Source: an uncultured Megasphaera sp. (lineage in GTDB: Bacteria; Bacillota; Negativicutes; Veillonellales; Megasphaeraceae). From it: DNA of 64,000 nucleotides. Within the stretch, counting starts at the first letter, position 1; every line of letters begins with the position of its first letter. Position numbers and translations under genes: made by a program. The stretch spans positions 76,702 through 140,701 of the forward strand of contig CAZDQW010000001.1 of the NCBI GenBank assembly GCA_964507845.1. Reading direction: 5' to 3'. A model generated the notes under the pieces. The model made no database searches. It was given only the letters and a program-made list of their open reading frames with translations, and was not told where the DNA came from. Below, piece after piece: positions 41,361-63,959 of the stretch.

Positions 41361-43352
<1,992 letters not shown>

Positions 43353-43365
43353 TCATGCTTGAACT

Positions 43366-43620: not shown

Positions 43621-44518
43621 CGTCTTTTCTCCTATATTTTTTCGTTAAATTACGGATAAATTCATCTGTAATTTCTACAGGATGACGGCCTGTAATAAGC
43701 ATAGCAAGCATCATGCCGTCTTCCTCGAACTCACAGTCACAATAGATTCTATGAATGCATTTGTAAATGCATTCGCGCTTTACTTCATTATATAATTCCG
43801 TATACATCGGATTGTCTTTCGGTATATATCCGTTATGTTTCATTTCTTCCAGCGTCAGCCACGGCATCTTTGTCACGATACGATATATGTCAATTTTTTT
43901 GTGATGCCGTTCTTTCAACCTGCATAAATAACAGACAGATTCGCCGGCGTCAAGCCACCGGCCGCAGTTCGGACATTGCCGCTTATTATTTTTCATAGCG
44001 GCTAGCCTTCGTTTTTCCTGAATAAACCGAAGTTTAACGATTCGTTCCTTCAATGCATCCGGTATGTTTTTTACATCATCTTGAATACGCCGCACCGTTT
44101 CTTCCGGCAGCACGATGCCTTTCACATTCATCTCCAAACTATATTCTTCTTCTCCGCTGACTGTCGCATAGGTAAAATAATCGGGCCTTCGTCCCCGCCT
44201 GACAAATCGTATATCATCAATTACAGAGTCATGTATATACTCATTTATCTTTTCAATAATTTTCTGCTTATACATAAACATCTGGCTCATCCATACGGAA
44301 TTAAGAACTGCAACTATGGCAGCCGAACCATCAAATGCAAGAATATACGAATATTGGGCAATTTTCGGACCAACGATCTGTTTCCAGTCTCTTTTGGCTT
44401 GGAATAATTTGTACGGAGTAAGCAGCTTATTTTTTTCCAATATATCCGGTATAGCAAGGGCAGCTTTTTCCAAATTATGGTTTTGTTTTTTCATAAGATA
44501 GTACCTTGCCTTTTTCAA
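43586..44518 (-). CDS. DUF721/DciA-family protein with C-terminal Zn ribbon
   Basis: W.QIVG..IA, VLNSVWMSQM (DUF721), CPNCG...CYLC. Follows recF. Confidence 0.8.
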   Translation of the reverse strand: MKKARYYLMKKQNHNLEKAALAIPDILEKNKLLTPYKLFQAKRDWKQIVGPKIAQYSYILAFDGSAAIVAVLNSVWMSQMFMYKQKIIEKINEYIHDSVIDDIRFVRRGRRPDYFTYATVSGEEEYSLEMNVKGIVLPEETVRRIQDDVKNIPDALKERIVKLRFIQEKRRLAAMKNNKRQCPNCGRWLDAGESVCYLCRLKERHHKKIDIYRIVTKMPWLTLEEMKHNGYIPKDNPMYTELYNEVKRECIYKCIHRIYCDCEFEEDGMMLAMLITGRHPVEITDEFIRNLTKKYRRKDDVPSCRRPADG

Positions 44519-45587
44519 TACGCAGAGGATAACAGCCGTTCATCGTTTCAAAAATAAGCGGATCCGTCGTCGTAATAAATGTTTGTATGCGGTTGCGTAC
44601 AAAATCAAGCAAGGCCTGGCGGCGTTCTCCATCTAGTTCACTCATTACGTCATCCAACAATAATACGGGATATTCGCCAATTTCTGATTTCATATATTCC
44701 AATTCCGATAACTTTAGCGATAAAACGGCTGTCCGCTGCTGGCCCTGAGAACCATATTTTTTTAGGTCGGCACCGCCGACAGTAAACGATAAATCATCTC
44801 GATGCGGTCCGATAGACGTAGATTGACGGTCTATGTCGGAACGAATATATTTTTTCAGCAAATAATAATACCACTGGGGATCTGTTTGCCGCCTATCCTG
44901 ATGTTCAGCATAAGGCTGAACATACGTCATAGACAAAGATTCCTTTCCTCCCGACAGCCGGCGATGAATCATGCTAGCCAACAAAGACATTTTCCGAAGC
45001 GCCTCAAGGCGTTTTTTTACAATAGATGCGGCAAAAGAAGCTATTTGGCGGTCCCATTCATCCAGCACGACAGTATTGTCATACCTCATTTGCCGCAGAA
45101 GCAGATTGCGCTGCAATACGGCGCGATTGTACTGCAGCAGCGTTTTGTAATATGATTTGCTGACCTGAGCTATTTCCATATCCATAAAACGCCGCCGCAA
45201 AGAAGGACTTCCTTTTATAAGCTGTAAATCTTCCGGTGAAAACAATACTTCATTTAAAGTCCCTACTAATTCTTTCTGAAATACCTTCGTCTCATTGATC
45301 CATAATTCTTTCTTTTTTGTCTTTGACAGGATAATCTTAATCTGCTGAATAACGTCGTTCCGAAAAAAATCGACGATAATACTGGCATTTTCCTGATCCC
45401 ACTGAATAAGATCGCCGTCTGATATTCCCCGGTAAGATTTTCCCACACTGCCTGCGTACAATGCTTCCAGAAGGTTCGTCTTCCCCTGCCCGTTCTTTCC
45501 GTACAATAAGATAATAGAAGGCAAAAACGTAATAAATTCATTTTGATAATTTCGGAATTGATGTAGGCGTATTGACTTTATATTCAT
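44475..45587 (-). CDS. recF: DNA replication/repair protein RecF
   Basis: GKNGQGKTNLLEA, GSPSLRRRFMD, GPHRDDL, SQGQQR, LLLDDVMSELD. Confidence 0.97.
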   Translation of the reverse strand: MNIKSIRLHQFRNYQNEFITFLPSIILLYGKNGQGKTNLLEALYAGSVGKSYRGISDGDLIQWDQENASIIVDFFRNDVIQQIKIILSKTKKKELWINETKVFQKELVGTLNEVLFSPEDLQLIKGSPSLRRRFMDMEIAQVSKSYYKTLLQYNRAVLQRNLLLRQMRYDNTVVLDEWDRQIASFAASIVKKRLEALRKMSLLASMIHRRLSGGKESLSMTYVQPYAEHQDRRQTDPQWYYYLLKKYIRSDIDRQSTSIGPHRDDLSFTVGGADLKKYGSQGQQRTAVLSLKLSELEYMKSEIGEYPVLLLDDVMSELDGERRQALLDFVRNRIQTFITTTDPLIFETMNGCYPLRIEKGKVLSYEKTKP

Positions 45588-45589
45588 AA

Positions 45590-45805
45590 TTATACACCGG
45601 CTATTTCATATATGCCGATTCCTTTTATTTCAACAATGTCGCCCTGATATAATTTTTTTCTCTTTGCCGTACAAAGCTCACCATTAACGAATATTCTCCG
45701 CTCCTGCAATAAAAAACGGATTTCACCGCCGCTCTGCAAAACGCTTGCCAATTTAAGACTTTGATCCAATTGTATACTTTCCGTTTTAATCACTATTTTT
45801 TCCAT
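45590..45805 (-). CDS. yaaA: S4-domain RNA-binding protein YaaA
   Basis: I.LDQSLK..GGE...VNGE..KRKKL..GD; synteny. Confidence 0.9.
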   Translation of the reverse strand: MEKIVIKTESIQLDQSLKLASVLQSGGEIRFLLQERRIFVNGELCTAKRKKLYQGDIVEIKGIGIYEIAGV

Positions 45806-48649: not shown

Positions 48650-49020
48650 ATGTGAATATTTTTTAAGATCAATATGTGGATAAGTGAATAATTACGAGCT
48701 GAAAAAAGCGGAAATTACGATATATATCGAATTTCCGGCAACATCATAAGTTGTACACAATTTGTGGAAAAATTGTTGATAACTTTTATTTTATCCACTT
48801 GATATACTGTTATTTTACACTAAAAGAGCAGGTATGGAAAGTTATTTTTTTCTGGATTGTCTCAGTAAAAAATTAAAATTATAGTAGTAGTGGATATGTT
48901 ATTATATTGACTGTGGATAAGTGGATAATTTTTAAGAGAAAAAAATCAGGAAACTAAGAAACAAGCGCTTCTTTTTTTTATAAAGTTATGCACAATTTGT
49001 GGATTATATGTGTATAACTT
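48650..49020. promoter_or_regulatory. DnaA-box cluster upstream of dnaA
   Basis: Multiple boxes, e.g. TGTGGATAA near 48675 and 48912, TTATGCACA near 48986, TGTGTATAA near 49009, plus near-consensus copies. Confidence 0.85.
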
Positions 49021-49068
49021 TTGTTTTTACATAAAAAATATGCTTTTTCTAATTGCATAAGAAAAGAA

Positions 49069-49097
49069 TTGACAGGCTTATTTTTTTTGACTATAAT
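49069..49097 (+). promoter_or_regulatory. Consensus promoter of the rpmH operon
   Basis: TTGACA-17 nt-TATAAT. Confidence 0.85.
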
Positions 49098-49160
49098 TAT
49101 GCTGTTATGGTGTAAAATGAATGGAAATGTGAGTGATAGGTGAAAAAGGAGGTGTCTAGC

Positions 49161-49295
49161 TTGAAACAGACATATCAGCCGAATACATTGTGGAGAAAAC
49201 GTACTCATGGTTTTCGTGCAAGAATGAAAACAAAAGGCGGCCGCATGGTTTTGAAAAAACGCCGTTTAAAAGGGAGAAAGAGACTCTCCGCGTAA
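49161..49295 (+). CDS. rpmH: 50S ribosomal protein L34
   Basis: Below the ORF-track cutoff. TTG start after AGGAGG; [44 protein letters not shown]. Confidence 0.97.
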
Positions 49296-49366
49296 TTATT
49301 ACAGATGAACAGACGAGTTCCGCAAGGGATTTTTCTGTTCATCTGCGTTTTAGGACAAATTAAAAT

Positions 49367-49729
49367 ATGTATGAATTAAAAAAAGAGAAAAGACTATGTA
49401 AGAATAGGGAATATCAGATTGTATACCGTTACGGAAAATCTTTTGTTAATCGATATGCTGTTCTGTATGTTCTAAAACGTTCACCGAAACAGGCATCCCG
49501 CATCGGTTTTGTTACAGGAAAAAAAATAGGCTGTGCAGTAGAACGGAACCGATGCCGGCGGTTGATGAAAGAGGTATATCGCCTTCATCAATTTGAATTA
49601 GCCGATGGATTTGATTTGGTGCTTATTGGCCGAAGTTATTTGAAAAATGTCGGATATGAGCAAGCTGAACGCAATATAATGCAGTTATTTCGGCAAGCTG
49701 GCGTATTGCGGAAAAACGAAAAATCATGA
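49367..49729 (+). CDS. rnpA: Ribonuclease P protein component
   Basis: [21 protein letters not shown] (RNR motif). Confidence 0.96.
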
Positions 49730-49935
49730 AACAGCTTTTTATCATTTTTATACGATGCTACCAAATTTTCATCTCTCCATTAAAACCGCCGTGCTGCCGG
49801 TTTTATCCAACTTGTTCGGCTTATGCGGTTGAAGCACTGCAGAAATACGGTTTTGCGAAAGGGAGTTATTTAGCAGTAAGGCGCATTTTAAAATGCCATC
49901 CCTTTCATAAAGGCGGATATGATCCTGTGCCGTAA
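49726..49935 (+). CDS. yidD: Membrane protein insertion efficiency factor
   Basis: [33 protein letters not shown]. Confidence 0.96.
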
Positions 49936-49989
49936 ATGCCGTCGGACAGATGAAAAAGAAATCTGGACATATTTCCCTTTGAATAGGAG

Positions 49990-50682
49990 TTGAATACAGT
50001 GAGTTTTTTTAGTGAAATAATGGACTTTCTCAGCGGTATCATGACTACGTTCATGGACTATTGCTACGCTTTTACTCAATCGATGGGATATCCGAGTTAT
50101 GGCTTGGCTATTATTATGCTGACCTTAATCATAAAATTGATCTTGTCGCCGCTTACGGCAAAGCAAATTCGTTCTATGGAAGGAATGCAGACATTACAGC
50201 CGAGAATAAAAGAACTGCAGAAGAAATATAAAGGAAATCAAAAGAAGCTTCAGGAAGAAATGGGAAAATTATATAGAGAAACAGGTGTGAATCCGCTGTC
50301 GGGATGTTTGCCGATCCTTATTCAAATGCCGTTTCTCATAGCTATTTTTTATGCATTGCGGTCATACCCCTATGATCCGGCTTATGAAAGCTTTTTATGG
50401 CTGCCGAGCTTGGGACAAGCAGACCCGACATATATCATGCCTATTTTGGCGGCGGCATCGACATATGTCATCCAAAAACAGATGTCGGCCACCTCGGTAG
50501 CAACGACAGAAGCGCAAGAAAAGCAGCAAAAGATCATGCGGGTTATTATGCCCTTATTTATTGGCTGGATTAGTTTAAACTTCCCAAGCGGTCTTGTTAT
50601 TTATTGGTTTTTGTCCAACATATTCCAATGGGGGCAGCAGATGATCATGTTCCGGAATAAGGGAAAGGGTGCAAAAGCATGA
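49990..50682 (+). CDS. yidC: YidC/Oxa1 membrane insertase (short form)
   Basis: YGLAII, LQP.IKELQ.KY, NPLSGCLPILIQMP, GLVIYW. Confidence 0.95.
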   Translation: MNTVSFFSEIMDFLSGIMTTFMDYCYAFTQSMGYPSYGLAIIMLTLIIKLILSPLTAKQIRSMEGMQTLQPRIKELQKKYKGNQKKLQEEMGKLYRETGVNPLSGCLPILIQMPFLIAIFYALRSYPYDPAYESFLWLPSLGQADPTYIMPILAAASTYVIQKQMSATSVATTEAQEKQQKIMRVIMPLFIGWISLNFPSGLVIYWFLSNIFQWGQQMIMFRNKGKGAKA

Positions 50683-51455
50683 AAACGATGGAAGCAACAG
50701 GAAAAACGATAGAAGATGCTGTGCGGTCCGGATTAGTCCGTCTCGGCATGATGGAAAATGAAGTAGAAATTGAAGTATTGGAAGAACCAAAAAGCGGATT
50801 TTTAGGCTTTGGAAGCAAGCCGGCGAAAGTGCGCCTGACAGAAAAAGAAAAGAGAACTACGGCGATTTGCGACTTGGAAAAAGAAACAAGTAAAAAAATA
50901 ACAGATGATGAACCGGCTATTGAAAAAAAAGAGGCTGCTGAAGAAGAAATACCATTAGAAGATGTTTGCGAACATACTGATGAAAAGGCAGAAATATTTA
51001 CTGCTGAAGAAGCGGCCGCCAGAGCTAAGGTTTTTTTACAAGATGTTCTTCGCAATATGGGTGTTCAGGTTATGATTGAAAAGATGATAAAACCTGATAA
51101 AGTTATTCTCCACCTTCGCGGCAAACATTTAGGCATTTTGATTGGAAAACATGGACAGACCTTGGACGCGCTTCAGTATTTGACGAATTTGACGACGAAT
51201 CAGGGAGAAGAAACACGTCATTTTATTATGCTGGATGTAGAAAATTACCGGCAGCGTCGGGAAGAAACGTTGAAGCAGTTAGCTTCCCGCTTGGCCGGCC
51301 GTGTCCGCCGAAATAAAGAGAAAGTAGTTCTGGAACCGATGAACGGGTATGAACGGAAAGTGATTCATGTAGCGTTGCAGAATGAAGAACATGTTCGCAC
51401 GGAAAGCGAAGGGCAGGATCCGTATCGTCATGTTGTCATTTATTACGAGAAATAA
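50679..51455 (+). CDS. jag: Jag/EloR/KhpB RNA-binding protein (Jag_N, KH, R3H)
   Basis: TGKTIEDA, LIGKHGQTLDALQ, LEPMNGYERKVIH. Confidence 0.95.
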   Translation: MKTMEATGKTIEDAVRSGLVRLGMMENEVEIEVLEEPKSGFLGFGSKPAKVRLTEKEKRTTAICDLEKETSKKITDDEPAIEKKEAAEEEIPLEDVCEHTDEKAEIFTAEEAAARAKVFLQDVLRNMGVQVMIEKMIKPDKVILHLRGKHLGILIGKHGQTLDALQYLTNLTTNQGEETRHFIMLDVENYRQRREETLKQLASRLAGRVRRNKEKVVLEPMNGYERKVIHVALQNEEHVRTESEGQDPYRHVVIYYEK

Positions 51456-51505
51456 AATATAGGCAGTGATTAGTCATCGTTAAGCAGATTATTCACTGGT
51501 GAGAC

Positions 51506-51551: not shown

Positions 51552-52931
51552 ATGTACGATACAAGTGATACGATAGCTGCCATTGCCACGCCGCTGGGAG
51601 AAGGCGGTATCGGTGTTATCCGAATCAGCGGACCGGAGGCATATGCTGTCGGCGATGCCGTTTTTCGGAGTACATCTGATATACCGCTGGGGAAAAGACA
51701 GGATCGATCTATTCAGTACGGAATTATTTCCGACGATGACGGGATGCCTGTTGATGAAGTACTGATGCTCATTATGAAAGGACCTCATTCATATACGGCT
51801 GAAGATGTTTTGGAAATTCAGTGCCATGGAGGAAGGCAGTCGTTGGAACGTATTATGAGTCTTGTATTGCGGCATGGCGCTCGGCTGGCTTATCCGGGAG
51901 AATTTACGCAGCGCGCTTTTATAAACGGGCGAATTGATTTGGCGCAAGCCGAAGCTGTCATGGATGTCATTCAGGCAAAAAGCGCCAAGGGGTTAACTGC
52001 TGCCGTCAGCCAGCTTGAAGGACGTTTATCCAAAAGCATCAATACCATGCGGCTTCATTTAACCGATTTTATTACACGGCTGGAAGTTACGGTCGATTAT
52101 CCGGAAGAAGATCTGGAAGATATTGAAATTCCCGATATTGCGGCAGCTTTGCGCGATATGGAATCCCGTTTGGAAAAGATGCTGGCAGAATCGAGAGATG
52201 GACGCATAATACGGGATGGTGTTGTAGCAGCCATTGCCGGAACGCCGAATGCAGGAAAATCGAGTTTGCTGAACCGTTTTTTAGAGGAAGAAAGGGCGAT
52301 TGTTACGGATGTTCCCGGAACGACGCGAGACGTCATTGAGGAGTGGATAACGATTCAAGGCATTCCCGTCTGTTTGGTGGATACGGCAGGCATACGCAAT
52401 ACCAGCGATGCAGTAGAACAAATCGGCGTTCAGCGGGCTAAAGAATATATGGATAAAGCAGATATCGTTATTATTGTTGTCGATCAATCACGGCCGCTGC
52501 AGGATGAAGATAAACGCATTTTGACATCTGCCCAGGGAAAAGAAGGATTGATTGTGCTCAATAAAAATGATTTGACGCCGGTTATTCATGAAGGGGATGT
52601 TTCATTATATGGTTTTCCTGTTTTGTCTGTTTCCGCAAATTCCGGTAGTGGCATGGATAGGCTGAAAGAAAAGATCGTATCCATGGCTTTGCAGCATGAG
52701 CCGATGTCCGGTCAAAGCGCGCTGCTGACGAATACGCGTCATATTGAACTGGTTCGTCAAAGTCAGGATGCATTGCGTCGTGCTTTGGAATCAATCGAAA
52801 AGGGAATGCCTGTAGACTGCGCCATCGTTGATATTCGCGAAGCGTGGGAACTGCTGGGATCTATTACAGGTCAGACCGTTCATGACGATATTGTAGAAGA
52901 AATATTCAGCCGTTTTTGTTTAGGAAAGTAG
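51552..52931 (+). CDS. mnmE: tRNA modification GTPase MnmE
   Basis: [45 protein letters not shown]. Confidence 0.98.
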
Positions 52932-52944
52932 AAAAGGTGAGAAC

Positions 52945-54834
52945 ATGTTTGTAGTCGATACATACGACGTCATCGTTATTGGCGCCGGTCACGCCGGCTG
53001 CGAAGCGGCGCTGGCCAGCGCGCGCCTCGGAGCAAAGACGCTGGCGGCTACGCTTAATCTCGATAATATTGCGCTCATGCCGTGCAACCCCGCCGTCGGA
53101 GGACCTGGAAAAAGCCATCTTGTTCGGGAAATAGATGCTCTTGGCGGACAAATGGCGATTAATACGGACAAAACATGCATTCAGATGCGTATGCTTAATA
53201 CCGGTAAAGGACCGGCAGTTTATTCTCTCCGGGCGCAGTCCGATAAGAAATTATACCAGATGATGATGACGGACGTACTGGAAAATCAGGAAAACCTGGA
53301 CGTAAAACAATTAATGGTTACGGAACTTCTTATAGATGACGGGAAGATTTCCGGCATCCGTACGGAAATGGATGAAGTATATAAAGCATCGTGCGTTATA
53401 TTGGCTACGGGTACCTATTTAAAAGGCAAGATCATTACCGGCGAATGCGTATATTCCGGCGGCCCTATGGGACAGCGGTCGGCTGAATTGTTGTCTGCAT
53501 CGTTAATAAAGGCAGGGCTTCATCTCATGCGGTTTAAGACCGGCACACCGGCGCGTGTCGATCGTCGTACGCTGCGGACTGAAAAAATGAAGGTGCAGGA
53601 AGGCGATAAAGAAGGCCAGGCTTTTTCTTTTATGTCGGAACGGAGAAATCGCAGCAAAGAATGTTGTTGGCTGACATTTACAAATGAAGAAACCCATCGC
53701 ATCATACGGGAAAATTTGCAGCGGGCACCTATGTGCAACGGCGTTATTCAAGGTACAGGGCCGCGGTACTGCCCGTCAATAGAATCTAAAATAGTGCGAT
53801 TTGCCGATAAAAAACGGCATCAGCTTTTTATTGAGCCGGAAGGAGAAACAACGGAAGAAATGTATGTGCAGGGAATGAGCACAAGCCTTCCTGTTGACGT
53901 TCAATATGCCTTTTTGCGCACTATTCCCGGATTGGAAGACGTAAAGATTATGAGGCCCGGTTATGCGATCGAATATGATTGCCTCGATCCGACACAGCTT
54001 ACCGCTTCATTGGAAACAAAAAAAATAGAAGGACTTTTTTCCGCAGGACAATCCAACGGTACAAGCGGATATGAAGAAGCCGCTGCGCAAGGACTTATTG
54101 CCGGCATTAATGCTGCCCGCAAAGTGCAGGGCAAAGAGCCGTTTATCCTTACTCGTTCCGAGGCGTACATCGGCGTTCTTATTGATGATTTGGTGACGAA
54201 AGGCACGAATGAACCGTACCGCATGATGACAAGCCGTTCCGAATACAGGCTGATTTTGCGGCAGGATAACGCCGATTTGCGCTTGACGCAGAAAGGATAT
54301 GATCTTGGTCTGGTTACGCAGGAAAGATACGATGCATTTGTTAAAAAGAAAAAAGCCGTTGACGCCGGGCTGGCGGCGTTGAAGGAAATTTCTGTCACTC
54401 CAGCAAAAGTAAATCAGGAAAAGCTGGCATCTATTAGAACGGCGCCTATCCGGACGGCTCTTAAAGCATATGACCTGCTGCGCCGTAATGAAGTGACGTA
54501 TAAGTTATTGTGCCGCATTTTCCCGCTTCCTGTTCTTGATGAAGATGCCTGCGAAGAAATAGAAATTATAGTAAAGTATGAGGGATATATAGAACGGCAG
54601 CTTGAACAAGTTGAAAAAATGAATCGGCTGGAAAAGAAACTTATGCCGGAAGATATTGTTTATGCCGATATTGATACGCTGTCCGGGGAAGCGAGACAGA
54701 AATTAGATGCTATCCGGCCTCGTTCATTAGGTCAAGCAAGCCGGATTTCCGGCGTATCGCCTGCAGATATTACGGCGCTGCTCATCGTGTTGGAACAGCG
54801 CCGGCGGGAGGAGAAAAGCAATGTTTCGAATTGA
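52945..54834 (+). CDS. mnmG: tRNA uridine 5-carboxymethylaminomethyl modification enzyme MnmG/GidA
   Basis: [37 protein letters not shown]. Confidence 0.98.
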
Positions 54835-55531
54835 ACTTGAAAAAGCGGCTGATCAGTTCGGCATAACACTGACGGAAGAACAAATTGATAAATTCTGCAT
54901 TTTTGCAGAACTGCTTGTTGAAACGAATAAAGTCATGAATTTGACGGCTATTACTGATCCTTTCGGCGTTGCAGTCAAACACGTCATCGATAGTTTGTCC
55001 TGTTATGACGAAAAATTTTTTCCAAACAAAGCCTCTCTTCTTGATTTAGGCACCGGCGCCGGATTTCCCGGTATGCCTCTTCTTATATACAGACCGGATC
55101 TTCAGGTTACTTTTTTCGATTCTTTGCGGAAACGGCTTGACTTTTTACAACAGGCAGCGGAAAAACTTAAGGTTAAGGCGAAGTTTCTTCATGGCCGGGC
55201 CGAAGATATGGCTCATGAAGCGGCGTATCGGGAAAAATTCGATATTGTAACCAGCCGGGCCGTAGCCAGACTGCCTGTATTAAATGAGTGGGCTCTTCCA
55301 TATGTTTCCTGCGGAGGCGTATTTATTTCCCTGAAAGGGGCTCAGTATGAAGAAGAATTAGCTGATTCGAAAAACGGGCTGAACATATTGGGAGGGGCTG
55401 TATCTGCCGTACACCCTGTTCATTTACCGGGAATTGACGATAAACGGGCTGTCATATATATTAAGAAAGTTAGCCCCAGTCCGAAAAAATATCCGCGCAA
55501 GCCGAAAGCAGCGGAGAAACATCCGCTGTAA
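54821..55531 (+). CDS. rsmG: 16S rRNA m7G527 methyltransferase RsmG/GidB
   Basis: [27 protein letters not shown]. Confidence 0.96.
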
Positions 55532-55564
55532 TACAGCTATTTCATGAAGGAGAGTGACGGTGCA

Positions 55565-56500
55565 ATGTCTTTAAGAAAAATAGTTACAATCATAGCGGCG
55601 GTCGGACTGGCGGCATCTGCAGCGGCAGCATCCGCGGCGGAACTGCCGGATGTCAAAGCGCAGTCTGCCTATGTCATGGATGCAGATACAGGAGACACGC
55701 TTTATGTTAAAAATCCTGATGTGCAAGGATACCCGGGCAGTACGACAAAAATTATGACCTGTATTATTGCCTTAGAGAAAGGAAAAAATAAAATGGATCA
55801 GGCTGTTGTTATTTCAGATGATTCGCTGCGCATGGACAGCGACGTATCTGTATTAGGTCTGCAGCCCGGCGACCAAGTAACGCTGCGTAATGCATTGACA
55901 GGGATGATGCTCGTATCCGGCTGCGATGCGGCAGTAGATATTGCCGAAACGGTTATGCCGACAGAAGCTGACTTTGTAGCTGCCATGAATGAAAAAGCTG
56001 GTGCTGTTGGCGCGAACCGTACTCATTTTACGAATCCCCATGGACTTCCTGACGAAAATCATTACACGACGGCTCGGGATTTGGCTCAAATAGCCGCATA
56101 CGGAATGAAAATGGAAGAATTCCGTAATATCGTTAGTAAAAGTGAGTTTGACATGCCTTACATAACCGGCGGATACAAGCATTGCATATCGACAAATGAA
56201 TTTTTAACCGGCGGCTTTCCCGGCGCCAACGGCGTAAAAACGGGGACGACAAATGCCGGAGGCCCCTGCCTTGTCGTATCGGCAACGCAAAACGGGCGTA
56301 CGGTTATTGCGGCGATAGTCAATTCAGAAGATCGTTATGGCGACGCTCAAGAATTGATGGCGTACGGCTTTTCGGTTTTAAAACCGTCAGAAAATGTTTA
56401 TGTTATCAGAAAAGCACCGGCAGGACAGAAACTTTCATCACCTTCATCTCGTGCGGCGGGAGCAGGTGAAAACAACAGGGATTCAAAAACATCGGCATAA
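55565..56500 (+). CDS. Peptidase S11 low-molecular-weight PBP (DD-carboxypeptidase/transpeptidase) with signal peptide
   Basis: STTK, SGC, HFTNPHGL, KTG. Ala-rich signal peptide; no obvious C-terminal anchor. Confidence 0.9.
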   Translation: MSLRKIVTIIAAVGLAASAAAASAAELPDVKAQSAYVMDADTGDTLYVKNPDVQGYPGSTTKIMTCIIALEKGKNKMDQAVVISDDSLRMDSDVSVLGLQPGDQVTLRNALTGMMLVSGCDAAVDIAETVMPTEADFVAAMNEKAGAVGANRTHFTNPHGLPDENHYTTARDLAQIAAYGMKMEEFRNIVSKSEFDMPYITGGYKHCISTNEFLTGGFPGANGVKTGTTNAGGPCLVVSATQNGRTVIAAIVNSEDRYGDAQELMAYGFSVLKPSENVYVIRKAPAGQKLSSPSSRAAGAGENNRDSKTSA

Positions 56501-56503
56501 TTC

Positions 56504-56532
56504 TTGACAGAAATGAAATATATCCGTATAAT
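56504..56532 (+). promoter_or_regulatory. Consensus promoter driving the riboswitch-MFS transcript
   Basis: TTGACA (56504)-17 nt-TATAAT (56527). Confidence 0.88.
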
Positions 56533-56554
56533 CAAAACATGACAAGTACATAAT

Positions 56555-56628
56555 CAATGCAGGACTGACGGAATTAAGTGGAATAACCACGTGGACTGCA
56601 TGGTGAAAAAGCGCCGACCGTCTGGGCA
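56555..56628 (+). ncRNA. ZMP/ZTP (pfl) riboswitch aptamer
   Basis: P1 TGCAG/CTGCA enclosing GACTGACGGA, P2 GTGG-AATAA-CCAC, A-rich linker, 3' element GCCGACCGTCTGGGC; pseudoknot GACGG (56567-71)/CCGTC (56618-22). Confidence 0.85.
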
Positions 56629-56669
56629 AAGAGTACATCTGTTCTTTGGCTGGGCGATCGGCGTTTTTT
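56612..56669 (+). terminator. Riboswitch expression-platform terminator overlapping the 3' aptamer
   Basis: CGCCGACCGTCTGGGCAAAGA pairs with TCTTTGGCTGGGCGATCGGCG, followed by TTTTTT. Confidence 0.82.
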
Positions 56670-56705
56670 ACGGGATTGCCGGCCTTGCAAAGGAGAGAGT
56701 TTTAC

Positions 56706-57989
56706 ATGAAACGAAATCGGTGGCTCATCGCTTTGTCGGCTATGGGGATCCATATCTGCATTGGCAGCGTCTATGCATGGAGCGTACTGACGAAGCCAAT
56801 AATGGAAAACATGGGATTTTCCCTTCAGGAAACGACGTGGACATTTTCTTTGGCTATTTTATTTTTAGGACTTTCCGCAGGATTTCTCGGCAATTTTGTC
56901 CAAAAAGCAGGTCCGCGCGTATCCGGCCTCGTTTCTACTTTGTTTTTCGGCAGCGCAATGTTTGGAACGGCGGCGGCAATGTATTTCCACAGCCTGCCTA
57001 TGCTGTATCTGTTTTATGGCGTTATCGGCGGCATCGGGCTGGGAACAGGGTACATAACGCCTGTCTCGACACTTGTCAAATGGTTTCCCGATAACCGCGG
57101 CTTTGCAACAGGCCTGGCGATTATGGGTTTTGGCTTTGCCAGCATGATTGCCGGACCGGTTATGCAGCTTTTAGTAGCCAATTTCGGACTGACGGAAAAT
57201 TTCATTATTCTTGGCGTTGTGTATGTTGTTATCATGACGGCTTCGTCCTTGTATCTGGCGCCGCCTAAGGAAAATGAAATGCCCCGTCCCGATATCAGTC
57301 TGCAGGGAGCGGAAGAAAAGCACCGTCCCGTATATGCAGACGCAATGCCGCAATTTTCGCTGAATGATGCGATGAAAACATGGCAACTGTATACAATTTG
57401 GTGGCTCTTTTTTGTCAATATTGCCTGCGGTATTGCCCTGCTGGCCGTCGTATCGCCGATGGCGCAGGAAGTAGTCGGCATGTCGCCGATGGCGGCGGCG
57501 TCCATGGTCGGAGTCATCGGCTTTTTAAACGGCGCCGGCCGTATTGCCTGGGCAACGGTATCTGATTATATCGGCCGGGCCAATACGTATGTTTTATTTT
57601 TCTTTATTGAAGTACTGGCATTTTATAAGTTATCAACAGAAACAAATGCTTTTAGTTTTCAGATTATTGTGCTGCTTATTATTACTTGCTACGGCGGCGG
57701 CTTTTCGTGTATGCCCGCTTACTTGAGCGATTTATTCGGCACAAAATCGCTGAGCGCTATTCACGGACGCATTCTTACGGCTTGGGGTGCTGCCGGCGTG
57801 GCCGGGCCTCTTCTTCTGTCGTGGATTAAGGAAACGACAAACAGCTATGCTTTTACGCTGCAGGCTTTTTCAGCGCTTTTTGTGACGTCTTTGTTTATTA
57901 TGATTTTCCTCAAAATAAAAACACGTCATGGTATTGTGCAGAACCAAGCGTATTGGCCGGTAAAAAATAAATCTGTTGAAAAATTATAA
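56706..57989 (+). CDS. MFS transporter, oxalate/formate antiporter (OFA, YhjX/OxlT) family
   Basis: GSVYAWSV, GIGLGTGYITPVSTLVKWFPDNRGFATG, NGAGRIAW..SDYIGR, CYGGGF..PAYLSDLFG. Start after AAGGAG. Confidence 0.92.
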   Translation: MKRNRWLIALSAMGIHICIGSVYAWSVLTKPIMENMGFSLQETTWTFSLAILFLGLSAGFLGNFVQKAGPRVSGLVSTLFFGSAMFGTAAAMYFHSLPMLYLFYGVIGGIGLGTGYITPVSTLVKWFPDNRGFATGLAIMGFGFASMIAGPVMQLLVANFGLTENFIILGVVYVVIMTASSLYLAPPKENEMPRPDISLQGAEEKHRPVYADAMPQFSLNDAMKTWQLYTIWWLFFVNIACGIALLAVVSPMAQEVVGMSPMAAASMVGVIGFLNGAGRIAWATVSDYIGRANTYVLFFFIEVLAFYKLSTETNAFSFQIIVLLIITCYGGGFSCMPAYLSDLFGTKSLSAIHGRILTAWGAAGVAGPLLLSWIKETTNSYAFTLQAFSALFVTSLFIMIFLKIKTRHGIVQNQAYWPVKNKSVEKL

Positions 57990-58001
57990 TCTGGATAATG
58001 T

Positions 58002-58034
58002 AAAAACAGCTGTCTGCGGACAGCTGTTTTTTTT
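58002..58034 (+). terminator. Intrinsic terminator
   Basis: AAAAACAGCTGTC/GACAGCTGTTTTT followed by T-tract. Confidence 0.85.
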
Positions 58035-58236
58035 ATAATGACAAGAATGACAACTTTGTTATACAGTTAATTTTTGTCGGTGCGCATAATTTGGAGGTCA
58101 TAATATACGTTATTCGATACGTTCATGGTTCCTGATGAATCCTGTTCCGTTTTAAAATGTATTGGCGGTGCAATTTTATATTAGAGGACATAGCCGGAAT
58201 AAATAGATTCCTGCCAGTATGATATATAGACATAAG

Positions 58237-58308: not shown

Positions 58309-58331
58309 AAAGATGAAAAGAGGTGAGATGC

Positions 58332-59090
58332 ATGTTAACGGAGGAACGGAAAGAGGAAATTTTGCGTCTTGTCAATACGCACAGAGCGATGACAGTGCAA
58401 GAATTAGTCCGTTATCTGGATATTTCCGAATCGACGGCACGGCGGGATTTGGCGGCATTAGATCAGGAAGGATTGCTGAAACGGGTTCACGGCGGTGCAA
58501 CGACGCTGCGGGAGGGAACGTATGATGCGGATATGGAAGATCTGCAGGATAAATATTCGTTTCATTTGCTGGAAAAACGGCAGATTGCGCAGTTTGCGTC
58601 TGCGCAGGTGAAAAAAAATGATTTTGTGTATTTGGATGCCGGTTCAACGGTTGAACAAATGGCCGATTTTCTTTCCGGATCGGAAGCGTCTTTTGTAACA
58701 AACAGCATCCCTTTAGCGAAAAAACTGGCCCGCAGCGGAGCAGCCGTTTATATTCTTCCCGGAAAGGTTAAAGGACGGACAGAGGCTGTTATTGGCAGCG
58801 AAATGAGGGATATGCTGAGCCGGTATCACTTTACGAAAGGTTTTTTCGGAACAAACGGTATTTCTTCGGCAAATGGCTGCACGACGCCGGATATAGAAGA
58901 AGCCGCCTGCAAACGGGCAGCGGTGATGCAGTGCGAAACGGCGTATGTTTTGGCAGATACAGCCAAATTCGGCTTGTCATCTCACATTACCTTTGCCGAG
59001 CTTTCTCAGGTAACGATTATTACGGCAAAAGGAGAAAGAGTTATAGATTATGAGCCGTATAAAAATATAACGGAGGTGCATGTGCTTTGA
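58332..59090 (+). CDS. fruR: DeoR-family fructose repressor
   Basis: SESTARRDL..L...RVHGGA, YLDAGST, TNS, KGFFGTNG, ADTAKF. Confidence 0.92.
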   Translation: MLTEERKEEILRLVNTHRAMTVQELVRYLDISESTARRDLAALDQEGLLKRVHGGATTLREGTYDADMEDLQDKYSFHLLEKRQIAQFASAQVKKNDFVYLDAGSTVEQMADFLSGSEASFVTNSIPLAKKLARSGAAVYILPGKVKGRTEAVIGSEMRDMLSRYHFTKGFFGTNGISSANGCTTPDIEEAACKRAAVMQCETAYVLADTAKFGLSSHITFAELSQVTIITAKGERVIDYEPYKNITEVHVL

Positions 59091-59995
59091 TTTATACAGT
59101 AACATTTAATCCTTCTCTTGATTATGTCGTACGTATGGAGCAATTTACGGCCGGCGGAATCAATCGGGCGGAAGAAGAGAGGATTTATCCAGGCGGCAAA
59201 GGCGTCAATGTTGCGCTGGTCTTGGGAAATCTTGGTATTCCGGCTAAAATGCTGGGTTTTGTTGCCGGATTTACAGGCCGCGAAATTGAACGCCTTGCTG
59301 CGGAAAACGGCGGTAATTGTGAATTTATCAGGCTGGATACAGGGTATTCGCGCATCAATCTGAAAATAAGCGCTGAAGAAGAAACGGCGGTCAACGGGGC
59401 AGGTCCTGACGTTCCGCCGGATAAGGTGGAGGCGCTGATAAAGCAGATTGAAACGATAGCCGACGGCGATACGCTGGTCTTGGCCGGAAGTATTCCTGCA
59501 ACGCTTCCCAATAATATGTACGAACAGATTATGGATCGTCTTGCTGCCCGGCCTATCCATATTGTTGTCGATGCGACTGGCGATTTATTGAAAAACGTGC
59601 TGCCGTACAGGCCTTTTCTTATTAAACCGAATCAATTTGAGTTAGGCGAGCTGTTTGGCGCCGATTTATGCACAGATGAAGAAATTACGGAATGCGCGAA
59701 AAATCTGCAGGATAGAGGGGCGAGAAATGTCCTCGTATCTCTCGGCGGAGACGGAGCGCTTCTTGTTGGTGAAGACGGAACGGTATATCGAATGAAATCG
59801 CCGGGCGGAAAACTCGTCAATTCCGTTGGAGCCGGAGACAGCATGGTTGCCGGTTTTCTCGCAGGTTTTGCGTCGTCAGGCGGCGATCTTCACGAAGCGT
59901 TGAAAATGGGCGTCAGCGCCGGCAGTGCGTCGGCTTTTCGTGAGTGGCTGGCGGCAAAAGAAGATATTGAAGAAATATATGGATTATTGACGTAG
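59087..59995 (+). CDS. fruK: 1-phosphofructokinase
   Basis: TVTFNPSLDY, PGGKGVNV, IKPNQFEL, NSVGAGDSMVAG. Confidence 0.94.
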   Translation: MIYTVTFNPSLDYVVRMEQFTAGGINRAEEERIYPGGKGVNVALVLGNLGIPAKMLGFVAGFTGREIERLAAENGGNCEFIRLDTGYSRINLKISAEEETAVNGAGPDVPPDKVEALIKQIETIADGDTLVLAGSIPATLPNNMYEQIMDRLAARPIHIVVDATGDLLKNVLPYRPFLIKPNQFELGELFGADLCTDEEITECAKNLQDRGARNVLVSLGGDGALLVGEDGTVYRMKSPGGKLVNSVGAGDSMVAGFLAGFASSGGDLHEALKMGVSAGSASAFREWLAAKEDIEEIYGLLT

Positions 59996-60024
59996 AAAAA
60001 TCATTTGTAGAGGAGAAAAAGCAC

Positions 60025-61950
60025 ATGCGTATAGTTGATCTGCTGAAAAAGGAAAGTATTGATTTAAATGCCTGTGTTGCCGATAAAAAACAGGCCATTG
60101 ACCATCTTGCCGATTTGATGAATAAAGGCGGCAACATCAATGATCTTGAAGCATATAAGGCGGCTGTTTTTGCCCGCGAAGATGAAGGCAGCACCGGTAT
60201 CGGCGAAGGTATTGCTATTCCGCATGCCAAGACGGATGCTGCCGATGCGCCCGGACTGGCGTCCATGATTGTCCGGAACGGTGTTGATTATGAAAGCCTT
60301 GATGACGAACCGGCATATTTATTCTTTTTAATTGCGGCGCCTGCCGGCGGAGCCAATGTGCATTTGGAAGTATTGAGCCGTCTGAGCCGGATGCTTATGG
60401 ACGATGATTTTCGGGAAAAACTTATGAGCGCAGAGACTGCTTCCGAATATCTTTCGGTTATTGATGCGGCGGAATCGAAACAACTTGCCGAAGACGGAGA
60501 AGCAGAGGCATCCGCGGAAAATCAAATAGATACAGCTGTACCCGGCAGGCCGTTTATTATCGGTGTAACGGCGTGCCCTACGGGCATTGCTCATACGTAC
60601 ATGGCTGCAGAAGCGTTGGAAAATAAAGGCGCGGCTATGGGTATTGAAATAAAAATTGAAACAAACGGATCCGGCGGGGTCAAAAATCATCTCACGGCTG
60701 AAGATATTCGCCGTGCTGCCGGAGTTATTGTTGCTTGCGATAAAGACGTGCCGACGCAGCGGTTTGCCGGAAAACCCGTTATTTTTACGAAAGTAGCCAA
60801 CGGCATTAAAGTTCCGGGAGAATTAATCCAAACGATTCTCGACGGAAAAGCGCCGATTTTCCACGGAGAAGCATCGTCGGCAGAAGAGATCGGCACGGAA
60901 ACTGCTGAAAAAGAAAGCGCCGGCCGGCAGATATATAAACATTTGATGGACGGCGTGTCGCATATGCTGCCCTTTGTTATCGGCGGCGGCATACTTATTG
61001 CGCTGGCGTTCTTGTTTGATATGGAGAATGCAGGAACGGCTCAGTTCGGTACGGGAACGCCGCTGGCGGCATTTCTGAAAAATATAGGCGGTTTGGCTTT
61101 CAGCATGATGATGCCGATTTTAGCCGGATACATTGCCATGAGCATCGGTGAACGGCCTGCGCTTATGCCGGGCATTGTCGGCGGATTTCTTGCGACGACC
61201 GGCGGTTCCGGCTTTTTCGGCGCTCTTTTTGCCGGTTTTATCGGCGGATATCTTATCGTTTTTCTAAAAAAAGCATTTTCCCGTCTTCCGCAGGCTCTTG
61301 ACGGAACAAAGCCGGTTTTGATTTACCCTGTCTTGGGACTTGTGCTTATCGGCATTATTATGACGTATATCATTAATCCGCCGACAGCAATGTTCAACAC
61401 ATGGCTTTTTGACGTATTGAACAGCATGACGACGACTAGCCGCGTTGTTTTGGGATTCATCCTCGGAGGCATGATGTCCATTGATTTCGGCGGACCGATT
61501 AATAAAGCGGCGTATGTCTTCGGTACGGCATCGTTGATGAATGCTGCCGGAAGTGCCGTCAGCTCGGGCATTATGGCTTCCGTTATGGTAGGCGGCATGG
61601 TGCCTCCCATTGCGATTGCTTTATCGATGGTATTATTTAAACATAAATTTACGGCCAGAGAACGGCAGTCAACGGTAACGAATTTCATTATGGGACTATC
61701 TTTTATTACAGAAGGAGCCATTCCTTTTGCGGCGGCTGATCCTATACGCGTTATTCCGACGTGCGCCGCCGGCGCAGCCGTTGCCGGAGCATTGTCCATG
61801 TTTTTCGGCTGCACCGTTCCGGCTCCTCACGGAGGTATTTTCGTTTTCGGTGTTGTAACGAATTGGCCGATGTATCTGGTTTCCCTATGTGCCGGCGGCG
61901 TCGTAGCAGCGGTTTTGATGGGTATTATTAAGAAAAAACAGGAAGTGTAA
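60025..61950 (+). CDS. fruA: PTS fructose-specific EIIABC
   Basis: IIA GIAIPH, IIB ACPTGIAHTYMAAE, IIC FDMGGP-like IDFGGPINK, FITEGAIPF, PAPHGG. Confidence 0.94.
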   Translation: MRIVDLLKKESIDLNACVADKKQAIDHLADLMNKGGNINDLEAYKAAVFAREDEGSTGIGEGIAIPHAKTDAADAPGLASMIVRNGVDYESLDDEPAYLFFLIAAPAGGANVHLEVLSRLSRMLMDDDFREKLMSAETASEYLSVIDAAESKQLAEDGEAEASAENQIDTAVPGRPFIIGVTACPTGIAHTYMAAEALENKGAAMGIEIKIETNGSGGVKNHLTAEDIRRAAGVIVACDKDVPTQRFAGKPVIFTKVANGIKVPGELIQTILDGKAPIFHGEASSAEEIGTETAEKESAGRQIYKHLMDGVSHMLPFVIGGGILIALAFLFDMENAGTAQFGTGTPLAAFLKNIGGLAFSMMMPILAGYIAMSIGERPALMPGIVGGFLATTGGSGFFGALFAGFIGGYLIVFLKKAFSRLPQALDGTKPVLIYPVLGLVLIGIIMTYIINPPTAMFNTWLFDVLNSMTTTSRVVLGFILGGMMSIDFGGPINKAAYVFGTASLMNAAGSAVSSGIMASVMVGGMVPPIAIALSMVLFKHKFTARERQSTVTNFIMGLSFITEGAIPFAAADPIRVIPTCAAGAAVAGALSMFFGCTVPAPHGGIFVFGVVTNWPMYLVSLCAGGVVAAVLMGIIKKKQEV

Positions 61951-62046
61951 TTGCATTCATTTGTAAAATCATGTAAACTTATAGTATTGAAGTTTATGGG
62001 GTTGTTATACGATAACGTGTAATACCTATAAAGGAGGAAATTAAAA

Positions 62047-62304
62047 ATGAAAGAGTTTACATTTACCGTTACAGATCCATTAGGCCTGCATGCCCGTCCT
62101 GCCAGCCTTTTGGTAAAAGAAGCAAAGAAATTTGAATCGGAAATCACGATGATTAAGGGCGCCCGCAAGGGAGATTTAAAAAAGATTTTTACTATTATGG
62201 CTCTTGGCGTTAAGCAGGGAGAATCCGTTACCGTGCAGGTAGAAGGATCTGATGAAGAAGCGGCGGCGACTATGGTAGAAACATTCCTCAAAGAAAATTT
62301 CTAG
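62047..62304 (+). CDS. ptsH: Phosphocarrier HPr (His15 intact, Lys at position 46)
   Basis: GLHARP; DLKKIFTIMALG aligns with B. subtilis NLKSIMGVMSLG. Confidence 0.93.
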   Translation: MKEFTFTVTDPLGLHARPASLLVKEAKKFESEITMIKGARKGDLKKIFTIMALGVKQGESVTVQVEGSDEEAAATMVETFLKENF

Positions 62305-62327
62305 TAGTATAAGGAGTGAAGTATTCC

Positions 62328-63959
62328 ATGATCACGTTACAAGGAAAAAGCGTATTTGCCGGTATTACTATCGGTCCTCTGGCATTGTTTCATCGCAGCA
62401 CGGTTTCGACGGACAAGCATTCTATTGCCGATGCCGAAGCTGAAATTGCCCGTTTCCATGAGGCCCGTCAGACGTCTATTGCGCAGTTGAAGGAATTATA
62501 CGATAAAGCCGTGGAAAAAGTTGGCGAAGAAGATGCGGCTGTGTTCGAAGTGCATCAGATGATGCTGGAAGACGACGACTACATCGAATCCGTTGAAAAT
62601 CAGATCCGAGGGGAAATGATTAATGCCGAAGCGGCTGTCGACAGTACGGCACAGCAGTTTGCCGAGATGTTCCGCTCCATGGACGATGCGTACATGCAGG
62701 CTCGTGCCGCTGACGTCCTGGATATTTCACGGCGTGTGGAACAGGAGCTTTGCGGAGGACCAGCAATTGATTTCAGCAAATATGACCAGGTTATTATTGC
62801 TGCTGACGATTTGGCGCCCAGTGAAACGCTCCAGCTTGATACAGACAAAATTCTCGGATTCGTTACGTCCGGAGGAAGCACGAATTCCCATACGGCTATA
62901 TTGGCGCGCACGCTCGGCATTGCCGCTGTCGTCAGCACGAATACGCCGCTCAATACGGACGTAGACGGCATGATTGCCGTCATTGACGGATTAACAGGCA
63001 TGGTTTATATTGATCCTGATGAAGATACGCTGAGCAAAATGAAAGCAAAACAGGCGGAAGAAGCAGAGAGAAAACAACGCCTTGAAGCTGTCCGCGGCGC
63101 TTCTTCAGAAACGATAGACGGGAGAAAAATCAATGTATTCGCCAATATCGGCAATCCCGGAAACATACCTCAGGTACTGGCAAATGATGCCGAAGGCATC
63201 GGCCTTTTCCGCAGTGAATTTCTTTATTTGGAAAACAGCGATTATCCTACGGAAGAACAGCAGTTTGAAGCATATAAACAAACTGCTGAAGCCTTGGGCG
63301 GGAAAACGGTTGTCATCCGGACTCTCGATATCGGCGCCGACAAACAAGTTGATTATTTCCAGCTCGATAAAGAAGAAAATCCCGCTATGGGGATGCGGGC
63401 GATCCGAATCTGCCTGACCCGGCCGGAATTGTTCAAGACGCAGCTTCGGGCGCTGCTCCGCGCATCGGCGTTCGGTAAAATTGCCATTATGTTCCCGATG
63501 ATTATTTCCGTCAGTGAAGTAAAAAAATGCAAGGAAATATTGGCACAGGTCCGCGGCGAATTGGATCAGGAAGGCATCGCCTATGATAAAGATATGGAAA
63601 TCGGCATCATGGTTGAAACGCCGGCAGCTGCTATCATGAGTGATGAACTGGCAAAGGAAGTAGACTTTTTCAGCATCGGTTCTAATGACTTGACGCAGTA
63701 TACATTGGCTATCGACCGCCAGCAGACAAAGCTGGATAACTTCTTTGACGCGCATCATCCTGCCGTACTGCGGCTCATTGCCCAGACTATCGAAAACGGG
63801 CATAAGGCTGGTATTTGGGTAGGCATTTGCGGTGAATTAGGCGCTGATCTGACGCTTACGGAAACGTTCCTGCGTATGGGCGTCGATGAACTGTCCGTCA
63901 GCCCGCCTTTGGTCTTGCCGTTGAGAGAAAAGATTCGGTCTATTGACTTGAGCAAATAA
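62328..63959 (+). CDS. ptsI: PTS enzyme I
   Basis: SHTAILAR phospho-His, GIGLFRSEF, RTLDIGADK, MVETP, GSNDLTQY, GICGE. Confidence 0.96.
   Translation: MITLQGKSVFAGITIGPLALFHRSTVSTDKHSIADAEAEIARFHEARQTSIAQLKELYDKAVEKVGEEDAAVFEVHQMMLEDDDYIESVENQIRGEMINAEAAVDSTAQQFAEMFRSMDDAYMQARAADVLDISRRVEQELCGGPAIDFSKYDQVIIAADDLAPSETLQLDTDKILGFVTSGGSTNSHTAILARTLGIAAVVSTNTPLNTDVDGMIAVIDGLTGMVYIDPDEDTLSKMKAKQAEEAERKQRLEAVRGASSETIDGRKINVFANIGNPGNIPQVLANDAEGIGLFRSEFLYLENSDYPTEEQQFEAYKQTAEALGGKTVVIRTLDIGADKQVDYFQLDKEENPAMGMRAIRICLTRPELFKTQLRALLRASAFGKIAIMFPMIISVSEVKKCKEILAQVRGELDQEGIAYDKDMEIGIMVETPAAAIMSDELAKEVDFFSIGSNDLTQYTLAIDRQQTKLDNFFDAHHPAVLRLIAQTIENGHKAGIWVGICGELGADLTLTETFLRMGVDELSVSPPLVLPLREKIRSIDLSK

Follow-up and report, generated by a model that had tools for sequence, protein, structure and literature searches.

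A ZMP/ZTP riboswitch upstream of a probable formate transporter gene in Megasphaera and other Negativicutes

Why should a riboswitch that senses a stalled purine intermediate control a membrane transporter? The classic targets of the ZMP/ZTP riboswitches (pfl motif), which bind 5-aminoimidazole-4-carboxamide ribonucleotide (ZMP) and its triphosphate (ZTP), are the genes purH, fhs, pfl, and glyA as well as folD (PMC2864571). Here we report the analysis of a 64,000-nucleotide (nt) stretch of DNA (hereafter, the window) from an uncultured Megasphaera sp. (GenBank assembly GCA_964507845.1, contig CAZDQW010000001.1), in which such a riboswitch precedes a gene encoding not an enzyme but a transporter of the major facilitator superfamily (MFS), designated P0001. 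We identified the RNA element and its expression platform, followed the pairing of aptamer and transporter gene through the Negativicutes, and compared the binding pockets and gene neighborhoods of the transporter homologs. The combined evidence suggests that the transporter probably takes up formate when 10-formyl-tetrahydrofolate (10-formyl-THF) is short, and that the imported formate would feed the formate-THF ligase Fhs.

The riboswitch and its expression platform

The sole gathering-level Rfam match within the window is the ZMP/ZTP riboswitch family RF01750 at 56551-56634 on the forward strand, which scores 60.1 bits (E 2.9e-7; gathering score, 39) and spans model positions 1-86 of 86. 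The transcription unit to which it belongs comprises the following features:

56504-56532, forward strand: sigma-70 promoter, with the -35 box TTGACA at 56504-56509, a 17-nt spacer, and the -10 box TATAAT at 56527-56532 (12 of 12 consensus matches)
56551-56634, forward strand: ZMP/ZTP (pfl motif) riboswitch aptamer (RF01750, 60.1 bits)
56567-56571, forward strand: pseudoknot 5' strand GACGG, pairing with 56618-56622
56618-56622, forward strand: pseudoknot 3' strand CCGUC, followed by the invariant UGGGC (sequence reading and covariation)
56611-56669, forward strand: intrinsic terminator of the expression platform, with the hairpin at 56611-56664 and then U6 to 56669
56690-56697, forward strand: ribosome-binding site AAGGAGAG, located 8 nt upstream of the start codon (sequence reading)
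56706-57989, forward strand: gene for the 427-aa MFS transporter P0001, a probable formate transporter, with its ATG at 56706
58002-58039, forward strand: closing intrinsic terminator, with a 13-bp stem, a 4-nt loop, and a U run (hairpin 58002-58031, -19.4 kcal/mol)

Two aptamer helices were read from the sequence, namely P1, which pairs AUGCAG (56557-56562) with CUGCAU (56596-56601), and P2, which pairs GUGG (56578-56581) with CCAC (56587-56590); a short P3 joins 56613-56615 to 56625-56627. As in the known ZTP switches of Clostridium beijerinckii (pfl) and Fusobacterium ulcerans, two subdomains are joined by a pseudoknot, the invariant CUGGGC core is present, an intrinsic terminator overlaps the aptamer in a ligand-ON arrangement, and the regulon is shared with fhs and purH. 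The 5' arm of the terminator (56611-56633) covers P3 and the 3' strand of the pseudoknot, while its 3' arm occupies 56641-56664. The hairpin alone has a folding energy of -31 kcal/mol and dominates the minimum-energy fold of the leader, and it vanishes from the fold once the aptamer helices and the pseudoknot strands are held. The leader is thus a classic ligand-ON transcriptional design in which the terminator competes with the aptamer, and we infer that this copy responds to ZMP as the characterized members of the class do.

The promoter starts 3 nt past the stop codon of the upstream gene for an S11 D-Ala-D-Ala carboxypeptidase. The mnmE-mnmG-rsmG genes lie upstream, and an independent fruR-fruK-fruA-ptsI gene set follows downstream; because of this separate set and its own terminator, the transporter unit is monocistronic. 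An earlier note on this DNA, made from the sequence alone, had described a consensus promoter, a complete pfl aptamer, an overlapping intrinsic terminator in an ON-switch architecture, and a monocistronic gene with a terminator of its own. These claims were borne out, the aptamer by the full-length Rfam covariance model match, and the architecture is also kept in Veillonella and Megamonas, whose leaders contain an equivalent terminator that likewise overlaps the strand of the pseudoknot. As an RNA element, the switch is a regular representative of its known class.

Conservation of the aptamer-transporter pairing in Negativicutes

To follow the pairing in related genomes, a covariance model (R1) was built from 18 aligned Negativicutes aptamers and run over ortholog loci, which are denoted below by L numbers; an 8-sequence family alignment served for the search of related loci. 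In a first set from Megasphaera, Megamonas, and Veillonella (58-87% protein identity), an aptamer was found 80-170 nt upstream of the transporter gene in all 53 of 53 ortholog loci, two of them clipped by contig ends. Rfam independently confirmed 19 of the 20 first-set loci checked, the remaining one (L026) being clipped by a contig end. A second set contributed 36 intact aptamer loci, including those of Phascolarctobacterium, Dialister, Selenomonas, Sporomusaceae, V. magna, and V. ratti.

The exceptions are few. No aptamer was found upstream of the ortholog in the second-set loci L068 and L081, both of which belong to the Negativicutes clade, and the upstream DNA of L106, also from this set, is too short to judge. 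The one switchless ortholog with good flanks is that of L068, where four tRNA genes fill the upstream region (L068:2731-3781), with a c-di-GMP-I (cyclic diguanylate) riboswitch farther upstream. In Megasphaera elsdenii MSK.21.52 (L118:3830-3970), the aptamer has lost its 5' half, namely the 5' strand of P1 and GACGG; the -10 box there abuts P2, CCGTC has become CTGTC, and the terminator is retained. The M. elsdenii reference strain (L186:1342-1426) retains an intact aptamer of 76 bits.

Base pairing was tested by covariation over 46 homologous aptamers and 19 base pairs, with controls in which the pairing partners were slid. Overall, 98% of the cells are paired, versus 29-40% in the slid controls. 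Compensatory changes occur in 9 of the 19 pairs, with double changes in 6 of 6 P1 pairs and 2 of 4 P2 pairs; P3 is almost invariant and hence uninformative. All five pseudoknot pairs are 100% paired across the 46 aptamers, and the variable one among them is A-U in 43, G-C in 3, and mismatched in none. Compared with GGCG/CGCC in the Rfam consensus of RF01750, the pseudoknot GACGG/CCGUC has one G-C pair exchanged for A-U by a double change, and this departure is found in nearly all Negativicutes copies examined. The compensated pseudoknot pointed out in the earlier note is therefore real, but it is a lineage-wide trait rather than one special to the transporter gene, because the fhs and purH switches of the window genome carry the A-U pair too.

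In four loci, two complete ZTP switches stand in tandem before the ortholog (L062:3712-3922, L066:3722-3929, L073:1080-1290, and L116:3729-3928). Each unit exceeds the Rfam gathering score, and in both loci that were folded (L066 and L116) each unit has its own terminator. The upstream unit has GACGG/CCGUC and the downstream unit the canonical GGCGG/CCGCC in L066, L073, and L116, and both units have the A-U form in L062. The differing pseudoknots of the former three loci would block cross-pairing between units, making these tandems a natural case of two serial switches with non-cross-pairing pseudoknots.

The transporter family and its predicted substrate

Evidence on the substrate comes from relatives that are not preceded by the riboswitch. 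In 32 of 40 mostly Bacillales loci, whose transporters are 55-57% identical to P0001 and have an identical binding pocket, a formate-using enzyme adjoins the transporter gene. A molybdoenzyme of the FdhF/YdeP family (802-888 bits against a cut-off of 582) is encoded just downstream on the same strand in 22 of the 40 loci, 18 of which also contain fdhD, the gene for formate dehydrogenase sulfurtransferase. In 4 loci, a true formate dehydrogenase alpha subunit (Fdh-alpha, 838 bits against 666) and a DUF1641 protein precede the transporter, and in 6 loci it follows PurT, the formate-dependent glycinamide ribonucleotide (GAR) transformylase (591-612 bits). A conserved 118-aa MpsC-domain (PF10057) protein is encoded between the transporter and the FdhF/YdeP-family enzyme at L097:5301-5657 and in 17 other Bacillales loci.

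Two further contexts were found outside these bacteria. On IMG/VR contigs, identical-pocket transporters follow nrdD-nrdG on the same strand in 6-7 of 47 loci, involving two NrdD subtypes; the reductant of class III ribonucleotide reductase is formate. A 37%-identical copy is also encoded on many giant viral contigs from the same source, which form a large group (L150-L183, mostly 230-400 kb). Its pocket is identical in the aligned pair L150 and L153, and no nrdDG was found within 5 kb of the transporter copy on contigs L150-L183. In a distant lineage that includes haloarchaea, Planctomycetota, and others, true pyruvate formate-lyase (Pfl, 1150-1167 bits against 994) and/or its activase PflA is encoded beside the gene in five loci, mirroring the focA-pflB arrangement, and Fdh-alpha lies nearby in two further loci. 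Directly upstream of the Bacillales, deltaproteobacterial, phage, and outgroup homologs, we found no ZTP aptamer or other riboswitch, the phage and outgroup loci being judged with the Negativicutes-trained model R1 and not with Rfam. The support for formate import is thus independent of the riboswitch, since same-pocket homologs adjoin formate enzymes in unrelated lineages. Together with the ZTP switch, the gene contexts number six (ZTP, FdhF/YdeP with FdhD, Fdh-alpha with DUF1641, PurT, NrdDG, and Pfl/PflA), and formate is the sole metabolite common to them.

The public annotation points elsewhere, naming members of the family either 'L-lactate' or 'oxalate/formate antiporter-like' transporters. 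The only Pfam match of P0001 is MFS_1 (117.2 bits against 33.4, residues 19-368). Among the more specific models, P0001 exceeds with 391.9 bits the cut-off (320) of NCBIfam NF049980, an equivalog named 'SfMCT, L-lactate MFS transporter', and remains under both cut-offs for the oxalate/formate antiporter (OFA) family, TIGR00890 (184.8 against 374.85) and TIGR04259 (148.7 against 335). Of the 'OFA MFS' label that the gene had been given in the earlier note, the MFS part therefore stands and the OFA part is only loosely right, the SfMCT-named model being the only one passed. When NF049980 was scored on L097, L084, L105, L126, P0001, and SfMCT, the Bacillales proteins linked to Fdh or PurT reached 453-472 bits and SfMCT itself 407. 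Because Fdh/PurT-linked proteins outscore the protein after which it is named, this model covers too wide a family to settle what is transported, and the name 'L-lactate' has probably been over-propagated in RefSeq.

Among solved structures, P0001 is closest to SfMCT, an SLC16-type L-lactate:H+ symporter from Syntrophobacter fumaroxidans (PDB 6G9X/6HCL; E 1e-35, 29% identity), followed by OxlT of Oxalobacter formigenes (PDB 8HPJ/8HPK; E 5.5e-22, 27% identity). Their published ligand residues (PMC6573034 and PMC10070484, respectively) were transferred to P0001 by alignment, giving the pocket V22, Y23, Y116, F142, N275, R279, Y329, F333, L357, and W360. The carboxylate site is kept, with N275 and R279 corresponding to N276 and R280 of SfMCT and to N268 and R272 of OxlT, and Y116, Y329, and F333 match Tyr119, Tyr331, and Phe335 of SfMCT. 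In SfMCT, lactate is contacted by L28, Y119, L145, N276, R280, Y331, F335, F359, and C362, and the F359A mutant does not transport lactate (PMC6573034). Five of these nine contacts are kept in P0001, whereas L28 is replaced by V, L145 by F142, F359 by L357, and C362 by W360.

These comparisons bear on whether P0001 could be an L-lactate:H+ symporter like SfMCT, which would supply the main fermentation substrate while the riboswitch loosely ties lactate uptake to one-carbon demand. Such a role would fit the NF049980 match, the closest solved structure with its MFS fold and TM8 Asn-x-x-x-Arg motif, the five shared ligand residues, and the lactate-fermenting hosts (Megasphaera and Veillonella). 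We consider it distinctly unlikely, given the low identity, the well-supported separate clade described below, the model that does not discriminate, and the replacement of SfMCT residues F359, L145, and C362. In addition, no lactate-utilization gene was seen among the immediate neighbors at the ~130 homolog loci examined, where formate enzymes recur; the window genome already encodes a separate LctP-type lactate permease; and since lactate gives no formate without Pfl, which was not detected in this genome, ZTP control of a lactate carrier would lack logic.

An oxalate:formate antiporter of the OxlT type is highly improbable. Relatives do bear the label 'OFA family oxalate/formate antiporter-like' in sources such as JGI, OxlT ranks second among the solved structures and belongs to the same broad MFS subfamily, and its TM8 N-x-x-x-R motif is kept; it also handles formate, with the carboxylate on Arg272 (PMC10070484). 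Against this, both OFA models (TIGR00890 and the OxlT model TIGR04259) fail, OxlT falls into the other clade of the tree, and Lys355, which OxlT requires to bind the second carboxylate (PMC10070484), is replaced by Trp360, as is Gln34 by Val22. Release of formate would moreover be counter-productive in folate stress. Unlike OxlT, P0001 is predicted to import one monocarboxylate without dicarboxylate exchange.

An exhaustive search returned 13,092 representative homologs at E<=0.001. A nine-position signature, V-Y-F-N-R-Y-F-L-W (ten positions with Y23), is invariant or nearly so down to ~32% identity, and the full ten-residue pocket V-Y-Y-F-N-R-Y-F-L-W is identical in the Negativicutes, Bacillales, and phage members. 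Relationships were read from a quick maximum-likelihood tree (IQ-TREE with the Shimodaira-Hasegawa-like approximate likelihood ratio test, SH-aLRT). It omits L069, L075, and L093, for which no open reading frame (ORF) had been called, and its row L071, where the ORF was called wrongly and the branch is very long, is to be disregarded. The Negativicutes proteins form one clade in this tree (SH-aLRT 100), made up of 23 ZTP-linked rows and the switchless L068 and L081. Its sister (support 88) is the formate-enzyme-linked Bacillales clade. SfMCT and OxlT fall into a separate clade (support 100), the members of which differ at the final two positions of the pocket. One homolog from a deltaproteobacterial metagenome-assembled genome (L120:3983-5713, 576 aa) is fused to a C-terminal histidine-kinase-like ATPase domain (PF13581).

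It is also unlikely that the transporter carries a different small carboxylate linked to one-carbon or purine metabolism (glyoxylate, glycolate, acetate, or pyruvate) or has a broad specificity that includes formate. Many small acids would fit a monocarboxylate pocket with a single Arg, glyA and folD, which stand for one-carbon routes from serine and glycine, belong to ZTP regulons elsewhere (PMC2864571), and many outgroup loci have no formate-related neighbor. On the other hand, formate alone is common to the six gene contexts, the pocket is invariant across all of them, and the bulky F142 and W360, which replace smaller residues of the lactate carrier, suggest a smaller ligand. The earlier note had left the choice between formate and another one-carbon or folate-related substrate; the latter now appears less likely.

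Formate metabolism of the window genome and the proposed role of the transporter

The draft genome that contains the window (2.06 Mb, 94% complete) has three ZTP aptamers, located before fhs, purH, and the transporter gene, the latter being present in a single copy. The co-regulated partners are fhs, for formate-THF ligase (795 bits), and a gene for a PurH-type AICAR formyltransferase (710 bits). Among the formate users sought by tblastn, Fhs and NrdD-NrdG were found, and PurT, FdhF/YdeP, Fdh-alpha, and FdhD were not. A true Pfl was not detected in this genome, the best match reaching 122 bits against the cut-off of 994 (TIGR01255), nor was a gene for an FNT/FocA channel found. The two glycyl-radical enzymes present, of 789 aa (C9:~43300-45690) and 859 aa (C8:~48880-51460), score 122 and 97 bits against 994 with TIGR01255 and are not Pfl. 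The genes surrounding the LctP permease encode an amino-acid permease, two family III CoA-transferases, a BCCT carrier, and a sigma-54 activator, with no clear lactate-utilization cluster in this neighborhood. The presence of formate consumers, with no major internal source or other recognizable formate transporter detected, fits import.

The opposite direction must also be considered, namely that the transporter is a ZMP-induced exporter of a harmful metabolite such as AICA-riboside or excess formate, by analogy with the PbuE purine efflux pump, which is controlled by an adenine riboswitch. ON-riboswitches in other systems do control MFS efflux pumps, and the Pfl-linked relatives probably export formate. 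Such a function is nevertheless very unlikely here: the conserved Arg/Asn/Tyr carboxylate-binding pocket is unsuited to a nucleoside, no Pfl was found in the window genome as a producer of formate, the co-induced Fhs consumes formate, and the PurT, Fdh, and NrdD contexts call for supply rather than removal.

We therefore favor formate uptake, and propose that it would operate as follows. Transcription from the strong promoter would run into the ZMP/ZTP riboswitch. With sufficient 10-formyl-THF, ZMP would remain low, the 3' part of the aptamer would be caught in the terminator, and transcription would stop before the gene. At a shortage of 10-formyl-THF, PurH would stall, and ZMP/ZTP would build up and lock the GACGG/CCGUC pseudoknot and P3, so that no terminator forms and the transporter mRNA is made. 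The product, predicted to be an MFS carrier of 12 helices in which one Arg alone (R279, held in place by N275) binds the carboxylate and Phe142 and Trp360 narrow the pocket, would import formate from the surroundings. Fhs, also expected to be ZTP-induced in the window genome, would turn this formate into 10-formyl-THF, and PurH, encoded by the third ZTP-controlled gene, would then use up ZMP. Class III ribonucleotide reductase may be a further user of the imported formate. In this scheme, the RNA class with its covariation and competing terminator, the conserved pairing, the regulon of the window genome, and the gene contexts of relatives are observed, and the choice of formate, its movement into the cell, and the ion coupled to it are inferred.

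The earlier proposal of formate import under folate stress thus gains support from the formate-enzyme neighbors of same-pocket homologs, from the ZTP-controlled fhs and purH genes, and from the failure to find Pfl or FocA in the window genome. Several observations weigh against it. The equivalog model NF049980 names P0001 an L-lactate transporter, and its hosts ferment lactate. With the genome 94% complete, the absence of Pfl and FocA is less than certain. Only two of the five proton-site residues of SfMCT are kept in P0001 and the other three differ, by which the coupling is not fixed. The FdhF/YdeP-family enzymes are not all proven formate dehydrogenases, and most haloarchaeal and other outgroup loci have unrelated neighbors. 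As the Pfl-linked relatives presumably export formate, family membership does not fix the direction of transport, and bidirectional use across the family is likely.

A further point on the same side concerns fhs. If the transporter feeds Fhs, fhs would be expected under ZTP control wherever the pair occurs, and this expectation failed: no ZTP aptamer was found within 700 nt upstream of fhs in Veillonella, Selenomonas, Phascolarctobacterium, Anaerovibrio, and Massilibacillus. Among the 80 fhs loci, an aptamer within this distance was found only in a 90%-identical Megasphaera relative (L236). The fhs loci of other Negativicutes without an aptamer are the following:

L239, L247, L250, L259, L260, L264, L271, L272, L287, L298

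In the window genome, fhs has a ZTP aptamer (on C18); the ZTP regulon thus varies within the Negativicutes. The missing co-regulation is compatible with formate import, since fhs may be expressed constitutively or lie deeper in an operon. In this class, ZTP control is widely conserved for the transporter gene and not for fhs, and no other ZTP-controlled gene found there is conserved as widely.

In its proposed job and in the kinds of its neighbors (Pfl/PflA and formate dehydrogenases), the transporter resembles the FocA/FdhC proteins of the FNT family, which are pentameric channels of an unrelated fold and not 12-helix MFS carriers. With somewhat less confidence than the uptake of formate by P0001 itself, we favor a broader interpretation, in which the proteins with the invariant pocket would constitute a large, unrecognized family of formate carriers within the MFS, paralleling the FocA channels, and in which the uptake of formate from the community, rather than the induction of enzymes, would be the main answer of the Negativicutes to folate and one-carbon stress. 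The proposed family spans Bacillota, Planctomycetota, archaea, and large phages. A full-text literature search found no link between ZTP riboswitches and an MFS or OFA transporter and no description of an MFS formate importer, a prior mention being possible, and a transporter is named in none of the first 200 of the 438 supplement files of Weinberg 2010. What appears to be new is the function proposed for the transporter family, while the riboswitch class is known.

If correct, this interpretation would give a testable function to a transporter family of thousands of members and would correct the NCBI name 'L-lactate MFS transporter', which at present extends over the entire formate-linked clade. 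Negativicutes of the gut, mouth, and rumen, such as Veillonella, Megasphaera, Dialister, Phascolarctobacterium, and Selenomonas, would tap the formate excreted by their neighbors for purine synthesis when 10-formyl-THF is short, which would bear on models of cross-feeding and on the response of these bacteria to antifolate drugs. It would also explain the placement of the transporter after nrdDG in large phages of anaerobes, as a supply of reductant for the synthesis of DNA precursors.

On the chromosome, the locus lies between the origin-proximal mnmE-mnmG-rsmG genes with the S11 carboxypeptidase gene (51552-56500) and the fructose phosphotransferase system genes fruR-fruK-fruA(IIABC)-ptsI (58323-63959), and the same synteny is found in the M. 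elsdenii reference strain (L186).

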